Of a stretch of DNA of 64,000 bases, positions 5,946-62,157 are shown one piece after another. How positions within the stretch are numbered: position 1 is the stretch's first letter; each line of letters opens with the position of its first letter. Source of the stretch: an uncultured Bdellovibrionales bacterium (GTDB taxonomy: Bacteria; Patescibacteriota; Minisyncoccia; Moranbacterales; DUUL01); contig CAYQVD010000004.1 in assembly GCA_964421125.1 (NCBI GenBank), forward strand, positions 930 through 64,929, given 5' to 3'. The notes under the pieces were generated by a model that was not told where the DNA came from, made no database searches, and saw only the letters and a list, made by a program, of their open reading frames with translations. The position numbers and the translations under genes are program-made.

Positions 5946-7445
5946 TTATTTCACGTAATACTTCCCTTTTGTCTCTTCTTCTTCCTTTTTCTGTTCTTCT
6001 TTGATTTTCTTTTTTGCTAGGAACCGAAGAGATTGCAAATCTTCTTTTCGAAGTTCTTCCACTCGCTTCATTAATCCTTCCTTTTCATTCAGCTCTGGCT
6101 TCTCAATCACTTCTGCCAAAAGCACATCCAGGATTGCACCAATTTCTCGACTCGGTTTAAAATTCATTTCAGTAATCATAATATCTCCATTAAGCTTTAG
6201 TTGCTTAACAGAAATCGGATCCTTAGAAACTTTCTCTACCATATATTTAAAATGTCGAAGTCGGTACGGCACCGCCTTTGGCACACCACTTCCTAATCGA
6301 TCTGCAATTCTAACATCAATCAAGTCATTAATATTTTCTAATCCCACTTTTCGAATCACTTTTCGCACTCCCGCTTCACCAACTTCATCCACATTATAAT
6401 AAAACATATGATTTTTCACTAATAAAACGGTTTTTTCAATAATTTTCCGTGGATATTTCATTCTATTCATAATTCGATCCACAATTTTTGCTCCTCCATA
6501 TTCATGTCCATAAAAAGTTGCCATTTCCCCTTCTCCTCTTTTTGAATTTGGTTTTCCAATATCATGAAAAAAAGATGCTAACCGCACTTCCAATTTTTCT
6601 GATGGACATTTCTTAAGACTTGCCAACATATGTGCATAAACCGTGTTGTATGGACCATAATAATGATGACGATTTTGTTTCACACCAATTGTTTCAATCA
6701 CTTCTGGAATAAATTGATCCATTAATTTACTTTTAATCAACAACTCAACTCCCTTGCTTGGATTTTGAGAAATAATAATTTTATCAAATTCATCCCGAAT
6801 CCGCTCTTGTGAAATATGTTGCAAGTTTTTTGAATTTTTTTCAATTGACACAAATGTCTTCTTTTCAATCTCAAATCCGATTTGAACTGAAAATCGAATC
6901 GCTCGCATCATTCGAAGCGCATCTTCATTGAATCGCTCATCTGGCTCACCAACCGCTCGAATAACTTTGCTCTCTAAGTCTTTTTGTCCATTAAACAGAT
7001 CAACAATCTCTTTTTGATTCCCTTTCTCATCCAATTCAATTGCCATTGCATTTACTGTGAAATCCCTTCGACTCAAATCTTCTTCTAAAGTTTCTGCAAA
7101 CTGCACTTCATCTGGATGACGCTTATCTGAATAAGTCGATTCAATTCGATAAGTAGTTATTTCAATATTTGGCCCATCAACAGTTTCTTCTTGCTCTGTT
7201 TTAATATATTTTAAAGGAACCATTACTGTTCCAAAACTATTTTCGTATTTCCCATCTGGAATTATTTTCAATAGCTCTTCTGGTTTAGCATTCGTTGTAA
7301 CATCCCAGTCTTTTGGCTCCCCTCCCAACAACAAATCACGCACACAACCACCAACTAGATATGATTCAAATCCAGCTTTTTTAATTTTATTCATAATAAT
7401 CAACACCGATTCCGATATTTTTTGACTTTTCATCAGGTTATCCAC
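5946..7445 (-). CDS. cca: CCA-adding tRNA nucleotidyltransferase / poly(A) polymerase family with C-terminal HD domain
   Basis: GFESYLVGGCVRDLLLGGEPKDWDVTT nucleotidyltransferase head; HD-like HDIGK further downstream. Confidence 0.8.
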   Translation of the reverse strand: MDNLMKSQKISESVLIIMNKIKKAGFESYLVGGCVRDLLLGGEPKDWDVTTNAKPEELLKIIPDGKYENSFGTVMVPLKYIKTEQEETVDGPNIEITTYRIESTYSDKRHPDEVQFAETLEEDLSRRDFTVNAMAIELDEKGNQKEIVDLFNGQKDLESKVIRAVGEPDERFNEDALRMMRAIRFSVQIGFEIEKKTFVSIEKNSKNLQHISQERIRDEFDKIIISQNPSKGVELLIKSKLMDQFIPEVIETIGVKQNRHHYYGPYNTVYAHMLASLKKCPSEKLEVRLASFFHDIGKPNSKRGEGEMATFYGHEYGGAKIVDRIMNRMKYPRKIIEKTVLLVKNHMFYYNVDEVGEAGVRKVIRKVGLENINDLIDVRIADRLGSGVPKAVPYRLRHFKYMVEKVSKDPISVKQLKLNGDIMITEMNFKPSREIGAILDVLLAEVIEKPELNEKEGLMKRVEELRKEDLQSLRFLAKKKIKEEQKKEEEETKGKYYVK

Positions 7446-9300: not shown

Positions 9301-9410
9301 AAACTATACAACTAAATACCTTTTTGTGCCCCCAGCAGAAATCCCTTATTCCCTGTCTGCCATTATTCAAATCTTAAACACAACTAAAATAAAGAAACTC
9401 CTCTAAAATG

Positions 9411-9482
9411 TGTCCTTGCCAGGAGTCGAACCTGAATCTAAAGTTTAGGAAACTCTTATTCTATCCATTGAACTACAAGGAC
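9411..9482 (-). tRNA. tRNA-Arg (anticodon CCT)
   Basis: The reverse complement GTCCTTGTAGTTCAATGGATAGAAT...UUCCUAA loop...GGTTCGACTCCTGGCAAGGACA folds as a cloverleaf. Confidence 0.75.
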
Positions 9483-48557: not shown

Positions 48558-49310
48558 TTAATAACTTTTTATTTTTACTTTGGGCAAATTATCCCACAAA
48601 AGTTCAAAAATTGTTCTTAGTGTTTTATGGATTTCTGCTCCTTCAATAATAATTCCTATCTCTTCTCTCGAAGACATTAAGGCAACTTTTTGATGACCAT
48701 AAATATTAATTTCAACAGAAAAGGGATATTTTTTAGCATCAATTAATTTTGATGTACGTAACTGTTTTTGGTCTTTGTCGAAAAAGTTTTTCTCAATTAT
48801 TCCAGTTTTAGTCATAATTGCACGTACTCGTAAACCTTTTTCTATTCTTTTTTTAAGATAATCATTTGTCCAATCGATTCCCAAAACATTTACTACGTCT
48901 TCTGAGGCGAATGCTAACATTTCTCCGGAGTAACTTAGTGTATCCGTATAAACTTCCCTAAGACCGTTTTTTCCTTCATAAAATCTAATTTTTGGTCTTA
49001 TTCCTTTAATATTATACATGGATTTTAATATAGGCAACATTTCATCGAGTATTCTCTCTTTTTCAATTACTTCTTTCTTTATTTTTTCTGGATTTTCTGC
49101 TACAAAAAAACGCCTTTTTTCTTTAAAAGTCTCATAAATGAAATTTTCTTTTTTTAGATTAACTAAAATGTCATAACAAGTCGTTCTCTTCACTTCTGAT
49201 TTTTTGGCGATTTCAATAACTGTTCCGCTACCTAATTCTAAAACAGCTAAATAAATATTTGCTTTTTTTCCTTCAAGATCAAATTTTTTCAGAAAATCTT
49301 TTATTTGCAT
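48558..49310 (-). CDS. TrmB-like wHTH regulator (paralog 3)
   Basis: KKANIYLAVLELGSGTVIEIAKKSEVKRTTCYDILVNLKKENFI. Confidence 0.7.
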   Translation of the reverse strand: MQIKDFLKKFDLEGKKANIYLAVLELGSGTVIEIAKKSEVKRTTCYDILVNLKKENFIYETFKEKRRFFVAENPEKIKKEVIEKERILDEMLPILKSMYNIKGIRPKIRFYEGKNGLREVYTDTLSYSGEMLAFASEDVVNVLGIDWTNDYLKKRIEKGLRVRAIMTKTGIIEKNFFDKDQKQLRTSKLIDAKKYPFSVEINIYGHQKVALMSSREEIGIIIEGAEIHKTLRTIFELLWDNLPKVKIKSY

Positions 49311-50782: not shown

Positions 50783-51092
50783 GCCGGGGTAGCTCAGTGG
50801 TAGAGCAAAGGACTGGTTTTCGGTCCACTTCAGAGTAATCTGTTGTTAAAAATTGGGTGAATTCGGGGAAACCTAAGTTTGTTTAAACAAATAAGGCAAT
50901 CCCGAGCCAAGCTTCAAAGGGCTTTGTTTTTGAAGAAGGTGTAGAGACTAGCAGGTGAGTCCCAACAATAATCTTGCATAAGCGCCCAACTCCTATTAGT
51001 TAAATAGGATGATGAGATAGTCCAATCTTTTAGGAAACTTTAAGGCAAACAGGAAAATCCTTGTGTCGAGAGTTCAATTCTCTCCCCCGGCA
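50783..51092 (+). tRNA. tRNA-Phe (anticodon GAA) interrupted in the anticodon loop by a group I intron. Exon 1 is 50783-50814 and exon 2 is 51053-51092
   Basis: Joined exons give GCCGGGGTAGCTCAGTGGTAGAGCAAAGGACU|GAAAAUCCUUGUGUCGAGAGUUCAAUUCUCUCCCCCGGCA. This matches bacterial tRNA-Phe in its anticodon loop (ours CUGAAAA, 32C; E. coli UUGAAAA) and in the variable loop GUGUC. Confidence 0.75.
50815..51052 (+). ncRNA. Group I self-splicing intron (~238 nt, no ORF)
   Basis: P1 forms between the exon end GGACU and the internal guide GGUCC, with a U.G pair at the 5' splice site. A P7-like pairing is present (GACUAG at 50946 with UAGUC at 51018). The element CGGGGAAACC is present, the terminal G precedes exon 2, and the exons rejoin into a canonical tRNA. 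Confidence 0.65.
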
Positions 51093-51253
51093 CTAAATTA
51101 TTGTGGAGCAGAAATAGCTGTTTAAAGAGTTTCAGTAGCAGTTGATTCGCGCCGTATGGGTGGGCAATTTTCTTTTTCAGCACCATTAAAAAATCAAAGT
51201 TCATTTAAATAGGCTAATGTTAAGCGGGCCTGTCCGCCGAAGCGTAGCGAAAG

Positions 51254-51325
51254 GCGGGTGTAGTATAATGGTTATTACATCAGGTTGCCAATCTGAATAC
51301 GGCGGTTCGATTCCGCTCACCCGCT
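51254..51325 (+). tRNA. tRNA-Gly (anticodon GCC)
   Basis: GCGGGTG acceptor, UUGCCAA anticodon loop, GGCGG TTCGATT CCGCT T-arm. Confidence 0.75.
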
Positions 51326-51335
51326 CACTTTTACA

Positions 51336-51364
51336 AAAAACACTCAGATGAGTGTTTTTTGTTT
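51336..51364 (+). terminator. Rho-independent terminator after tRNA-Gly
   Basis: ACACTCAGATGAGTGT hairpin followed by TTTTTTGTTTT. Confidence 0.75.
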
Positions 51365-51412: not shown

Positions 51413-52546
51413 TTACTTTTTAAAATAATTTTTTCCGTAATTTTCATAGTATTTGAAAATTTCCGGAATTGCCAGCCATTTATCTGACTGGAAACGAAGA
51501 TCTTCTGAAACTTTTAAGCGCTCATTTACTGGCAATTGCATGTGGTAGCAAGTTGTCAGTATTCCATCGGCGTCCATTCTTACTCGGTTAATAAAGTCTC
51601 CGGGAAAAGGATATGCTCCCAGAAAAAGATTGGGAGCGAGTTGGCGAATTAAAAATCCTTCATCTAAATCAGTAATCAAATCTGAAAACTCCAGGTTGGA
51701 AAAATATTTTTTCCATATTACGTGCAGAAGATTTGGAGAAAGAAAATCAACTTTAATCAAAACCTTGGTTTGCAGAGTTTTAGTTTGTAAATCTTCAATT
51801 AATTTTATCAGCAAAGAATCACTATCGCTTTTTCCTTCAAGGGTACATCTTGTAAAAAAGACCATTGGCAAGTTGAGATTTGAAATGTCATTGATTGTTT
51901 GAAAAGGATCGACACCATTTTTAACGAGAATGCAAGAAGCAGTGGCCTTAACATTATTCTCATTTAACATTTTAGCAGCTTTCAGTGATGCTGGGTAATT
52001 CTTTTTTTCGCCGATACTAAAATCTGTAAGAATATTGTTTTTTGCTAAATAAACAGCAATATCCTTGGTTAAATTTATGCCATTAGTAATAATGGCTTTG
52101 CGGGGAGCTTGCACCATTTCTAGAACGTTACGGGTGCGGTTCCATGTTTCAAGCGGTTCCATGCCAACGATGGCAAAATCAACCGCCTGAAGTTTATTGC
52201 TGACAGAAGAGAGTTCTTTTTCAGTGGGAAGGCTTTTGATCTGCATATTGCGTTTTCGTAAGTAGCAATGTCGGCATCCCAAAGAACATTGATTATTTGA
52301 AAAGGCTGAAACGCTCATGTTCAACGGAATGTTTTGTATGGTGGAGAAAAAATCAGTCCAAGACATTTTTTTGTTTGCTGTCATGAGAGTTGCTTTCTGA
52401 AAATTTTCATTTGGCTTCGTGAGTGAAGCTTTCTCTGTCAGCAGTTCTTTGCTTCCTTCTATTCCTAATGCCATAATATCATCTCCTTTCCTTTCTTGAT
52501 TATATGAATAAAGTATTCCTTTGCTTCCTTCAAATCCTACTGCCAT
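51413..52546 (-). CDS. Radical SAM protein of unknown function (CxxxCxxC motif CSLGCRHC); start ambiguous
   Basis: The C-x3-C-x2-C motif is followed by about 300 aa, with no SPASM-type Cys cluster. Two alternative RBS-supported starts (52546, 52474) result from a ~35-bp direct duplication of the start region. The track's start at 52618 would overlap the divergent promoter. Confidence 0.55.
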   Translation of the reverse strand: MAVGFEGSKGILYSYNQERKGDDIMALGIEGSKELLTEKASLTKPNENFQKATLMTANKKMSWTDFFSTIQNIPLNMSVSAFSNNQCSLGCRHCYLRKRNMQIKSLPTEKELSSVSNKLQAVDFAIVGMEPLETWNRTRNVLEMVQAPRKAIITNGINLTKDIAVYLAKNNILTDFSIGEKKNYPASLKAAKMLNENNVKATASCILVKNGVDPFQTINDISNLNLPMVFFTRCTLEGKSDSDSLLIKLIEDLQTKTLQTKVLIKVDFLSPNLLHVIWKKYFSNLEFSDLITDLDEGFLIRQLAPNLFLGAYPFPGDFINRVRMDADGILTTCYHMQLPVNERLKVSEDLRFQSDKWLAIPEIFKYYENYGKNYFKK

Positions 52547-52611
52547 AGTATCTTCTCCTATTATTAAATGTTTTTTCAAGGAACTAACTGTATGCAATAT
52601 AGTATGTAGAA

Positions 52612-52649
52612 TTGACAAGAATGTAAAAAAATGTACAATTTATGTACAT
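52612..52649 (+). promoter_or_regulatory. Promoter (TTGACA, 16-bp spacer, TACAAT) overlapped by the inverted repeat ATGTACA-N5-TGTACAT (candidate autoregulatory operator); it implies a near-leaderless mRNA for the 52650 ORF
   Basis: Spacing counted directly; the palindrome spans 52631-52649. Confidence 0.5.
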
Positions 52650-53336
52650 ATGAAAAAGAATCAATTAAAATCTAGTGAATATCTTGTCTTAACTTCAACT
52701 GAAGAAAAAATCGTTTTTCTTTTGGAATCACAACATAAAAAAATGTCAATTTCAGAAATTTCAAAAGAAGTTCAGCTTGCTCGATCTAGCATTTATCGAT
52801 CAATAAGGTCATTGATTAATAAAGAAGTTGTAATAAAAGAACAATTTAAATATTTTTTGACTTTGGATGGTTTAGTGCAAAGTAAGAAATATGTCTTTAA
52901 AGAAAAGATAGAGGATCTTTTGAAAGAAATGCTTAGTTTAAAAAAAGGAGAAATTATTTATTCAATAGAATCTGATGAGGAAATAGAATATCTTTTTAAA
53001 AAAGAGAAGGGTCTTTTAAATTGGCAAAAAAATATTGCCGATAAAGGTATAGTTCTCAAGGGAATAGGAAGTATTAGGGCGTTGTCTTTTTTTAGAAGTA
53101 TTCAGAGTAAAAATTTAAATGCTCAAATAAAAAGAAGAAGCGGTTCTGCGAGATTTATAGTTGAAACTCTCTCTGGCCCTTGTATATTAGTTTCTTTTCG
53201 AAGTTCAATTATATTTTTTTCAAGAAAAAATAAATATTTTTATCGTATAGATGATATTAATGTTTCACGATTTATACAAATTGTTATTGAGACGCTTTAT
53301 TTAAATCTTCAGTATGAACCATTAGTTATTAATTAG
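52650..53336 (+). CDS. TrmB-like wHTH regulator (paralog 6, plus strand), divergent from the radical SAM gene
   Basis: SSEYLVLTSTEEKIVFLLESQHKKMSISEISKEVQLARSSIYRSIRSLINKEVV. Confidence 0.55.
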   Translation: MKKNQLKSSEYLVLTSTEEKIVFLLESQHKKMSISEISKEVQLARSSIYRSIRSLINKEVVIKEQFKYFLTLDGLVQSKKYVFKEKIEDLLKEMLSLKKGEIIYSIESDEEIEYLFKKEKGLLNWQKNIADKGIVLKGIGSIRALSFFRSIQSKNLNAQIKRRSGSARFIVETLSGPCILVSFRSSIIFFSRKNKYFYRIDDINVSRFIQIVIETLYLNLQYEPLVIN

Positions 53337-53518: not shown

Positions 53519-54520
53519 TTGCTTCACTGGTCAAGTAAAAAAATGATTGCACTGAACGAAAAAGTTAAAAAAGCTTTTAAAATAGTGGGGGTAATAGTAG
53601 TGTTGTTAATTCTGTGGGGAATTTATAGTCTTTTTACGGGAGGTGAAAATAGGTTAGGCTCCTCATCTTATGAAACAGGACTTTCTTCTTCTGATCGAAG
53701 TGTGAATATTAGTGCTCCTCTTGTTGCTATCCCTGAAATGGTACAAAAAAGTCATCAAACAGATTCAATGGAGTTAGTGGAAGGTAATTTTATTGAAGAT
53801 AGAGTTGGTAGTGCAATTCCAGTTGATAAAAAGGTTATTAAAAATGGAAATCTTAGTTTGAAAATTGAAAAAACAGAAGAAGCGGCGGAAGAAATTTCTC
53901 AGATTATAAAAGGTCAAGGAGGTGAAATATTTTCTACTAATTTTTATGAAAGAGTGAAGGGACAGAAAAGTGGAAATATGACAGTAAAGGTTCCAGTTCA
54001 AAAATTTGAAGAAACTATTGGAAAAGTAAAAGAGATAGCTACGCAGGTTATTTCAGAATCAACTACTGGTCAAGATGTGACGGAGCAATATGTTGATCTT
54101 CAAATTCAAGCTAAGAATAAGAGGGCAGAGGAAGAAAGTTTTGTAAAAATTCTTGATCGAGCAGGAGAAATTGATGATGTATTAGCGGTCACTAAACAAA
54201 TCTCGAGAGTGAGAGGTGAAATCGAAAGATTAGAAGGCAGAATTAAGGTTATGGATTCTCAGACGGATATGTCCACAATCACAATTAGTTTGAGTGAGGA
54301 TATTGAGATAGCACCAATTAGTAATGATTGGCGACCATGGCAAGTAGTTAAGAAATCTTTTAGTGAATTAGTTGATAGCATGCAAGGATTTATTAATGGA
54401 GTAATTCATTTTGTTATTGTGACACTTCCATCGTTGATCATTTTTTTGTTGATTGTTTGGATTGTGTGGAGTGTTGGAAAGAGAATTTTCAAGAAAATAT
54501 TTGGCAAGAAAGCTGAATAG
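53519..54520 (+). CDS. Membrane-anchored hypothetical protein (N- and C-terminal TM helices, coiled-coil middle), DUF4349-like layout
   Basis: Hydrophobic segments at residues ~20-40 and ~300-320; no recognisable domain. Confidence 0.45.
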   Translation: MLHWSSKKMIALNEKVKKAFKIVGVIVVLLILWGIYSLFTGGENRLGSSSYETGLSSSDRSVNISAPLVAIPEMVQKSHQTDSMELVEGNFIEDRVGSAIPVDKKVIKNGNLSLKIEKTEEAAEEISQIIKGQGGEIFSTNFYERVKGQKSGNMTVKVPVQKFEETIGKVKEIATQVISESTTGQDVTEQYVDLQIQAKNKRAEEESFVKILDRAGEIDDVLAVTKQISRVRGEIERLEGRIKVMDSQTDMSTITISLSEDIEIAPISNDWRPWQVVKKSFSELVDSMQGFINGVIHFVIVTLPSLIIFLLIVWIVWSVGKRIFKKIFGKKAE

Positions 54521-62067: not shown

Positions 62068-62151
62068 GCCCGGGTGCTGGAATTGGTAGACAGTCTGGAC
62101 TTAAAATCCAGTGATCGTAAGGTCGTGCGGGTTCAAGTCCCGCCCCGGGCA
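62068..62151 (+). tRNA. tRNA-Leu (anticodon TAA) with long variable arm
   Basis: GCCCGGG acceptor, CUUAAAA anticodon loop, long variable arm TGATCGTAAGGTCGTG, GCGGG TTCAAGT CCCGC T-arm. Confidence 0.8.
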
Positions 62152-62157
62152 CATAAT

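Follow-up and report, generated by a model that had tools for sequence, protein, structure and literature searches.

A compact group I intron of a known Patescibacteria family divides a tRNA-Phe(GAA) gene at positions 33/34

Introduction

What interrupts the phenylalanine transfer RNA (tRNA) gene in a 64,000-nucleotide (nt) stretch of contig CAYQVD010000004.1, deposited for an uncultured Bdellovibrionales bacterium (assembly GCA_964421125.1), and does a gene divided in this way still supply the cell with tRNA-Phe? In this stretch, referred to throughout as the window, the two exons of a tRNA-Phe(GAA) gene lie 238 nt apart, with the break immediately 5' of the anticodon. We are highly confident that the gene is functional and that it is cut between U33 and G34 by a 238-nt group I ribozyme that carries no open reading frame (ORF) and belongs to the known Patescibacteria family Phe.2Ug.

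The split tRNA-Phe gene

The 5' exon (50783-50814, + strand, 32 nt) supplies tRNA positions 1-33, with position 17 absent, and ends at U33, the U-1 nucleotide of the intron; the 3' exon (51053-51092, + strand, 40 nt) supplies positions 34-73, from G34, A35 and A36 of the anticodon to the discriminator base A73, and CCA is not encoded. Joining the two yields a 72-nt RNA that ARAGORN calls tRNA-Phe(gaa), with a 7-bp acceptor stem, the anticodon stem AAGGA/UCCUU, the anticodon loop CUGAAAA and the variable loop GUGUC, which is the canonical tRNA-Phe that a reading of the DNA from its sequence only (hereafter the sequence-only reading) had described. The nucleotides U20, G44, U45, U59, U60 and A73, read from the sequence, coincide with the recognition set of E. 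coli phenylalanyl-tRNA synthetase that Peterson and Uhlenbeck reportedly defined in 1992. Both exons are identical to those of the relative at locus L008 (loci are numbered with the prefix L), and the spliced product matches intronless tRNA-Phe genes at L125 (2234-2305) and L129 (1543-1614) in each of its 72 nt, so the tRNA itself is under selection.

The intervening sequence (50815-51052, + strand) was recovered with the Rfam covariance model for group I introns, with an nhmmer profile of the family and with blastn. The RF00028 (Intron_gpI) match extends over 50805-51044 and over model positions 1-253 of 253, and its 87.9 bits (E 4.4e-21) compare with a gathering score of 50; this was the check that the sequence-only reading had proposed for its 33/34 split by an intron of about 238 nt, and ARAGORN and RF00028 together bear that claim out to the base. 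The match is the sole group I match in the window, even at E <= 1, and the family profile likewise gives a single match (E 2.8e-62). The E-value of the covariance model and the homologues in more than 100 other genomes place the intron far outside the reach of chance. A group II intron or a bulge-helix-bulge intron removed by proteins was rejected, since Rfam returned no such match and the group I match is decisive. The intron and the 3' exon share an initial G, so when only this sequence is considered the boundaries can be slid by 1 base with no change to the mature tRNA. The U.G rule selects 50814/50815 and 51052/51053, and co-variation of a 10-nt guide with the two exons, seen across 110 sequences, sets the junction at 33/34.

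Intron architecture

We drew the structure of the intron by hand, including the P3/P7 pseudoknot, and mapped it onto a MAFFT alignment (A1) of 110 sequences, the window intron and 109 others, to which all pairing counts below refer; every element lies on the + strand. The internal guide UUUUC-GGUCC (50817-50826, intron nt 3-12) is complementary to the ligated junction GGACU-GAAAA. Its GGUCC half (50822-50826) forms five P1 pairs with exon nucleotides GGACU (50810-50814), including the U33.G50822 wobble at the splice site, and its UUUUC half (50817-50821) forms five P10 pairs with GAAAA at the start of the 3' exon (51053-51057). P2 follows as a hairpin (50831-50842) with a CAGA/UCUG stem and a GUAA loop of the GNRA type, in which the G and A bases of the loop are invariant; it is 94.8% paired and shows compensatory changes in 4 of its 4 pairs.

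The catalytic core is built around P3, in which UUGGGUG (50853-50859) pairs with CGCCCAA (50983-50989) and forms a pseudoknot with P7; P3 is 99.2% paired, with double changes in 4 of 7 pairs. Between the P3 strands, the P4-P5-P6 domain (50863-50940) comprises P4 (50863-50868/50900-50905, 99.8% paired), the base of P5 (50872-50874/50894-50896; the distal part of P5 aligns poorly, at 69.6% paired), P6 (50906-50908/50938-50940, 97.9% paired) and P6a (50912-50918/50929-50935, 95.3% paired), all seven pairs of which co-vary. The guanosine-binding helix P7 joins GACUA (50946-50950) to UAGUC (51018-51022), is 99.8% paired and almost invariant, and aligns to P7 of RF00028. It is followed directly by P7.1 (50951-50977), a 27-nt hairpin between P7 and the 3' strand of P3, whose GCAGG/CUUGC stem co-varies in 5 of 5 pairs and whose 17-nt loop, UGAGUCCCAACAAUAAU, hardly varies in most family members. 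P8 (50991-51009, UCCUAUU/AAUAGGA) appears in the minimum free energy (MFE) and centroid folds and keeps its basal pairs, with a distal part that is variable in length and poorly aligned (64.9% paired). P9 (51027-51044) has a GAAA loop and a 2-nt internal mismatch and co-varies in the approximately 60 sequences that possess it, and the last intron nucleotide is the omega-G at 51052.

Most of what the sequence-only reading had drawn is present in this structure: its P1 with the U.G pair at the splice site, its terminal G and its description of the intron as compact and ORF-less all stand, as no + strand ORF of more than 21 amino acids (aa) occurs in the intron. Its P7, given as GACUAG/UAGUC, was right for GACUA/UAGUC and one nucleotide too long, the final G belonging to P7.1. 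A mobile intron bearing a homing endonuclease was rejected on the same absence of an ORF from the intron. The RNA has a G+C content of 40%; its MFE and centroid folds recover P1, P2, P3, P4, P5, P6a, P7.1, P8 and P9, and its L2 and L9 both belong to the GNRA type, as do those of compact tRNA introns that fold by themselves.

Selection on the fold and on the guide

Across the alignment, the drawn pairs are standard in 90.5% of cells, compared with 75.1% in shuffled alignments and 31-50% when the partners were slid by 1-3 columns. Double changes, affecting both sides of a pair, occur in 42 of 57 pairs, and the observed measures were reached by none of 500 shuffles. This covariation is carried by P1, P2, P3, P4, P6, P6a and P7.1, with P7 invariant and the distal parts of P5, P8 and P9 varying in length and aligning poorly.

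The guide changes together with the tRNA that it serves. Over the 110 sequences its P1 half tracks the last nucleotides of the 5' exon (exon/guide GGACU/GGUCC, GCCCU/GGGGC, nGCCU/GGGCn and GGAUU/GAUCC) and its P10 half tracks the 3' exon (GAAAA/UUUUC, and GAAGA with UCUUC or UCUUU). The U.G pair of P1 is present in 110 of 110 family sequences, and the other P1 pairs show double changes. A G precedes GAA in every family member, a universality that is not independent, as our search pattern required it. In the other 109 sequences, 77 columns reach a conservation of 90% or more; the window copy carries the consensus base in 77 of 77, placing it joint first of the 110, and with consensus at every one of these columns, the tRNA-Phe intron of the window looks functional.

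Family distribution and variation

The family was collected by a pattern scan of species-representative genomes for the P7 3' strand AGTCC, followed by 8-38 nt and a G and then by the tRNA-Phe 3' exon. The scan gave at least 119 loci, which were stored as 8-kb stretches, and a split tRNA-Phe(GAA) could be rebuilt in at least 109 of them, where 200-310 nt (median about 237) separate the exons; most of the others have their match so near an end of the stored stretch that the 5' exon falls outside it. By blastn, the window intron has significant matches to 109 of the 109 other family introns, and in 16 of 20 taxonomically spread loci sampled, RF00028 scored above its gathering score at the predicted position.

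Among the matches listed, the record titles are nearly all those of metagenome-assembled genomes (MAGs) of Patescibacteria, the candidate phyla radiation (CPR), and name Moran-, Magasanik-, Falkow-, Uhr-, Peregrini-, Gracili-, Berkel-, Doudna- and Saccharibacteria, Microgenomatus and many Paceibacterota; the lineage labels of the genomes with a Phe 33/34 intron, again among those listed, are Paceibacteria, ABY1, Saccharimonadia, Microgenomatia and Doudna-, Berkel-, Peregrini- and Gracilibacteria. The genome of the window itself is absent from this set; the closest relative in it is L008, from Patescibacteria group bacterium UBA2193, which is syntenic with the window at 76-82% nucleotide identity (82% for a neighbouring comM-like gene). 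This similarity places the host among the Patescibacteria, as a relative of MAG UBA2193. Split tRNA-Phe genes of the Patescibacteria type were also seen in MAGs titled 'uncultured Gammaproteobacteria' or 'Bdellovibrionales' (L012, L021, L023, L028, L031, L061, L081, L082, L085, L090, L099 and L100); their introns share 75-80% identity with that of the window, and the taxonomy assigned to these bins looks doubtful.

Two kinds of structural variation were observed inside the family. An extension of P6 by approximately 55 nt (CCAAUCCUUCGC..GCAAGCAAGCC..GGCUUGCCUG.., A1 columns ~143-215) is carried by L005, L008, L044, L098, L112 and, in part, L105. Both exon types occur among its carriers, and it is absent from the window although L008 is the closest syntenic relative, a pattern that suggests gain and loss of a module or exchange between introns. 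The segment from P7 to P3' (A1 columns ~231-298), in turn, has two architectures within this one orthologous family: the majority, including the window, has one P7.1 hairpin with the near-invariant 17-nt loop, and about 15% have GACUAUCCCnnnnGGGAGUAC and a second hairpin (L017, L019, L020, L037, L044, L047, L050, L057, L059, L063, L071, L084, L086, L089, L101, L102, L113 and L118), a segment that we take to resemble P7.1/P7.2 of the phage T4 td intron. The row of L009 adds nothing to the P7.1 counts, as a run of N (~1585-1842) lies inside its intron between P7 and P3'.

A search of phage genomes with the intron found no close phage relative; all that it returned were core matches of 69 nt, at 76.8% identity, in Vibrio phages, where they are annotated 'hypothetical protein'. 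A blastn search of complete E. coli genomes with the spliced 72-nt tRNA gave no match at E 1e-5, a threshold that so short a query cannot reach against 28 Gb. One family locus, L029, from a MAG labelled 'bacterium', also has a match to the c-di-GMP-I-GGC riboswitch (cyclic di-guanosine monophosphate; 6807-6897, - strand, 67.4 bits against a gathering score of 59) approximately 3 kb from its split tRNA-Phe gene.

Comparison with known introns

The window intron is a further orthologue of a published and widespread Patescibacteria intron class, and is in this sense already known. Williams (2020; bioRxiv 10.1101/2020.01.27.920355) expanded the tRNA/site classes from 4 to 21, marked the classical tRNA introns as subgroup IC3, used the name fMet.2Ug, denoting site 33/34, for the classical intron of cyanobacterial initiator tRNA, and included in the seed alignment an entry 'Mba55.Phe.2Ug', whose core motifs are the same as those of the window intron. 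Nakagawa et al. (2026; PMC13011429, Table 1/S3) reported that a complete genome from Doudnabacteria, GCA_016699995.1, has a Phe(GAA) 33/34 intron, the single such case among 95 complete genomes, which was found by ARAGORN, by tFind and by the authors' own pipeline. According to the tRNA census of that paper, this genome has exactly one tRNA-Phe by every detection method, and the split gene is that one. The paper also describes 33/34 in tRNA-fMet as a commonly found site; in its account, bacterial tRNA introns as a rule have no ORF, nearly all tRNA introns of Patescibacteria are assigned to subgroup IA and none to IC, and self-splicing in vitro, free of protein, is shown for tRNA-Asn and tRNA-Asp 35/36 introns of Patescibacteria.

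The sequence-only reading had called tRNA-Phe an unusual host and 33/34 an unusual position, and had listed Leu(UAA), fMet, Ile(CAU) and Arg(CCU) as the main hosts. The list represents knowledge from before 2020, and the claim of an unusual host and position has to be withdrawn: 33/34 is the classical fMet site, Phe.2Ug was catalogued in 2020, the Doudnabacteria case followed in 2026, and the class is present in at least 109 species-level genomes.

The nearest published counterpart, the Doudnabacteria intron, shares with that of the window the tRNA, the anticodon, the site, U-1, the omega-G, the core, P7.1 and the phylum, at 72% identity over 207 aligned positions (blastn E 8e-21). The two come from different species and lineages and differ in the last nucleotides of the 5' exon (GGACU in the window, CGCCU in the Doudnabacteria gene) with a matching change of the guide, and in length, 238 nt with a P9 hairpin as against 211 nt; nothing categorical separates them. 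The tRNA-Asn and tRNA-Asp 35/36 introns come from the same phylum and have the same compact, ORF-less architecture, but they occupy other host tRNAs at a site inside the anticodon and use a different guide, and splicing has been demonstrated for them whereas for the Phe intron it is inferred. The validated Asn intron is 64% identical overall to the window intron, with which it has in common a P7/P7.1/P3' segment (GAGACUAG..GUGAG.CCAACAAUAAUC..AGCGCCC).

Among the classical introns, that of cyanobacterial tRNA-fMet(CAU) shares the 33/34 site 5' of the anticodon, in another host tRNA and another phylum. Those of Anabaena/Nostoc tRNA-Leu(UAA) (34/35) and Azoarcus tRNA-Ile(CAU) (36/37) likewise occupy the anticodon loop, combine small size and self-splicing with the lack of an ORF, and follow the same P1-P10 guide logic, but the Anabaena and Azoarcus IC3 introns differ from the window intron in site and host tRNA. 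The Anabaena tRNA-Leu intron is 54.6% identical to that of the window, with the identity concentrated in the P3-P4-P6-P7 core. Relative both to RF00028 and to this Anabaena intron, the window intron has approximately 32 nt inserted between P7 and P3'. An extra helix or helices P7.1/P7.2 in this place reportedly served Michel and Westhof in 1990 as the criterion of subgroup IA, and such a helix is found here in P7.1, as a single hairpin with no separate P7.2. The insertion, as read from the sequence, fits subgroup IA. Assignment to IC3 was rejected because the P7.1 insertion is present in the window intron and absent from the IC3 member compared (Anabaena tRNA-Leu only).

The window also holds tRNA genes of the classical host types, namely tRNA-Leu(UAA) (62068-62152, + strand), tRNA-Arg(CCU) (9410-9482, - strand) and tRNA-Met(CAU) (1723-1795, - strand). 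All three are uninterrupted, and only tRNA-Phe is split.

Genomic context

A tRNA-Gly(GCC) gene, called by ARAGORN and Rfam, lies 161 nt downstream of tRNA-Phe on the same strand (51254-51326, +). The only terminator-like hairpin of the region (51333-51362) follows tRNA-Gly, which makes a Phe-Gly co-transcript likely, and the two genes are thus probably transcribed together. Downstream of the pair, an ORF of 401 aa on the opposite strand (51413-52618, -) has a CxxxCxxC motif and a match to the radical S-adenosylmethionine family of 20.1 bits, below the curated cutoff of 29.5. An ORF with a TrmB-type helix-turn-helix (52521-53336, +) runs on the other strand and overlaps the 5' end of the 401-aa ORF, and a second TrmB-family ORF (48558-49310, -) is found upstream of the tRNA-Phe locus.

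Discussion

Ordinary group I splicing is the most likely mechanism by which this gene would yield a mature tRNA. In such a scheme the precursor would be the Phe-Gly co-transcript, in which the guide UUUUC-GGUCC would align the two exons, holding GGACU through P1 with its U33.G wobble and GAAAA through P10. An external guanosine held in P7 would attack after U33, and the freed 3'-OH of U33 would then attack after the omega-G at 51052, so that U33 becomes linked to G34 and the intron is set free. The ligated junction would read GGACU-GAAAAUCC and restore the normal anticodon loop CUGAAAA. Our analysis observed covariance-model membership, the core helices, co-variation of the guide with the exons and a fully conserved core; catalysis would follow, by analogy, from family membership and from relatives that have been seen to splice.

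Several observations weigh against a functional, self-sufficient intron. The energy of the intron fold is no better than that of shuffled sequences (z = -0.91), so that the case for the intron rests on the covariance model and on the comparative data, and P2 and P9 of the window copy hold internal mismatches. No convincing sigma-70-type promoter was found upstream of tRNA-Phe. Experiments on splicing cover only the related Asn and Asp 35/36 introns, and the visible part of the genome amounts to 64 kb, so that a second, uninterrupted tRNA-Phe may lie elsewhere. From these points arises the possibility that the locus is a tRNA-Phe pseudogene, whose intron has decayed or no longer splices and whose work is done by an intact gene elsewhere. 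The mismatches in P2 and P9 would suit such a decayed intron, and an intronless tRNA-Phe of the same sequence does exist in other organisms; the inspectable 64 kb, which hold no other tRNA-Phe, are also compatible with an intact copy lying outside them. On the other hand, a decayed intron would hardly keep to the consensus throughout the 77 highly conserved columns or retain a guide that matches both exons perfectly, the exons are identical to those of L008 and of intronless genes, as expected of a tRNA under selection, and in the published complete genome GCA_016699995.1 the split gene is the sole tRNA-Phe. We therefore regard a pseudogene as highly improbable.

A milder possibility is that the RNA is removed by the group I pathway but not autonomously, efficient splicing in the cell requiring a host protein as chaperone or cofactor. 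Reliance on proteins in vivo is common among group I introns, and an RNA that is small, A+U-rich and of a predicted stability not above that of shuffled sequences might well be one of them. However, the intron encodes no protein of its own, its L2 and L9 are GNRA loops, and Patescibacteria tRNA introns of the same architecture self-splice without protein in vitro (PMC13011429); we consider dependence on a host protein unlikely, though of the alternatives it is the one to which we give most weight. We give next to no credence to different boundaries or a different tRNA identity, which enter through ARAGORN in its intron mode (-i), where 50783-51093 is called Pro(ggg) i(35,217), that is, a tRNA-Pro(GGG) with a 217-nt intron from position 35. 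This call ignores U-1, the omega-G and P1/P10 and leaves a 'tRNA' of approximately 94 nt, and we rejected it on the P1/P10 evidence; the co-varying 10-nt guide fixes the junction at 33/34, the product spliced there is identical to intronless tRNA-Phe genes, and miscalls of this kind by such tools are documented (PMC13011429).

Whether the tRNA needs its intron can be asked of organisms that lack it. A scan of metagenome contigs found the uninterrupted D-stem-to-T-stem sequence of the window tRNA-Phe in 18 contigs (L122-L139), including the two fully identical genes described above. The flanks of these contigs share with the window only tRNA genes and proteins of 37-55% identity, and the intronless carriers are thus other, more distant organisms; a DUF4349 protein adjoins the tRNA in L126 and L134 and has a counterpart in the window at 53519-54520. 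As judged from these sequences, some relatives with this mature tRNA have the intron and others lack it. A second tRNA-Phe is absent from the 64-kb window and from each of the at least 119 loci of 8 kb. Because the same mature tRNA occurs elsewhere without it, a sporadic and tolerated selfish or neutral element fits better than a required part of the gene, and the tRNA-Phe intron is most simply seen as a tolerated, largely vertically inherited element of this kind.

A more ambitious reading would make the intron ancient and CPR-wide, kept because splicing that depends on guanosine and Mg2+ gates the supply of tRNA-Phe, with the P7.1 loop UGAGUCCCAACAAUAAU as a lineage-specific tertiary or protein contact. 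It presumes that the intron interrupts the only tRNA-Phe gene. We hold this regulatory role to be quite improbable.

What the functional split gene means in practice is mostly a matter of annotation. ARAGORN in its default mode reports 7 other tRNAs in the window and misses tRNA-Phe, and its intron mode misnames the gene tRNA-Pro(GGG), so that automated annotation could report an organism of this kind as lacking tRNA-Phe; the tRNA set becomes complete again once the group I intron at Phe 33/34 is recognised. For the intron family itself the addition is a modest one: the Phe.2Ug class is very widespread in Patescibacteria, its breadth of at least 109 species exceeding the single complete-genome case reported in 2026, and its guide tracks changes in the anticodon stem of the tRNA that it interrupts.

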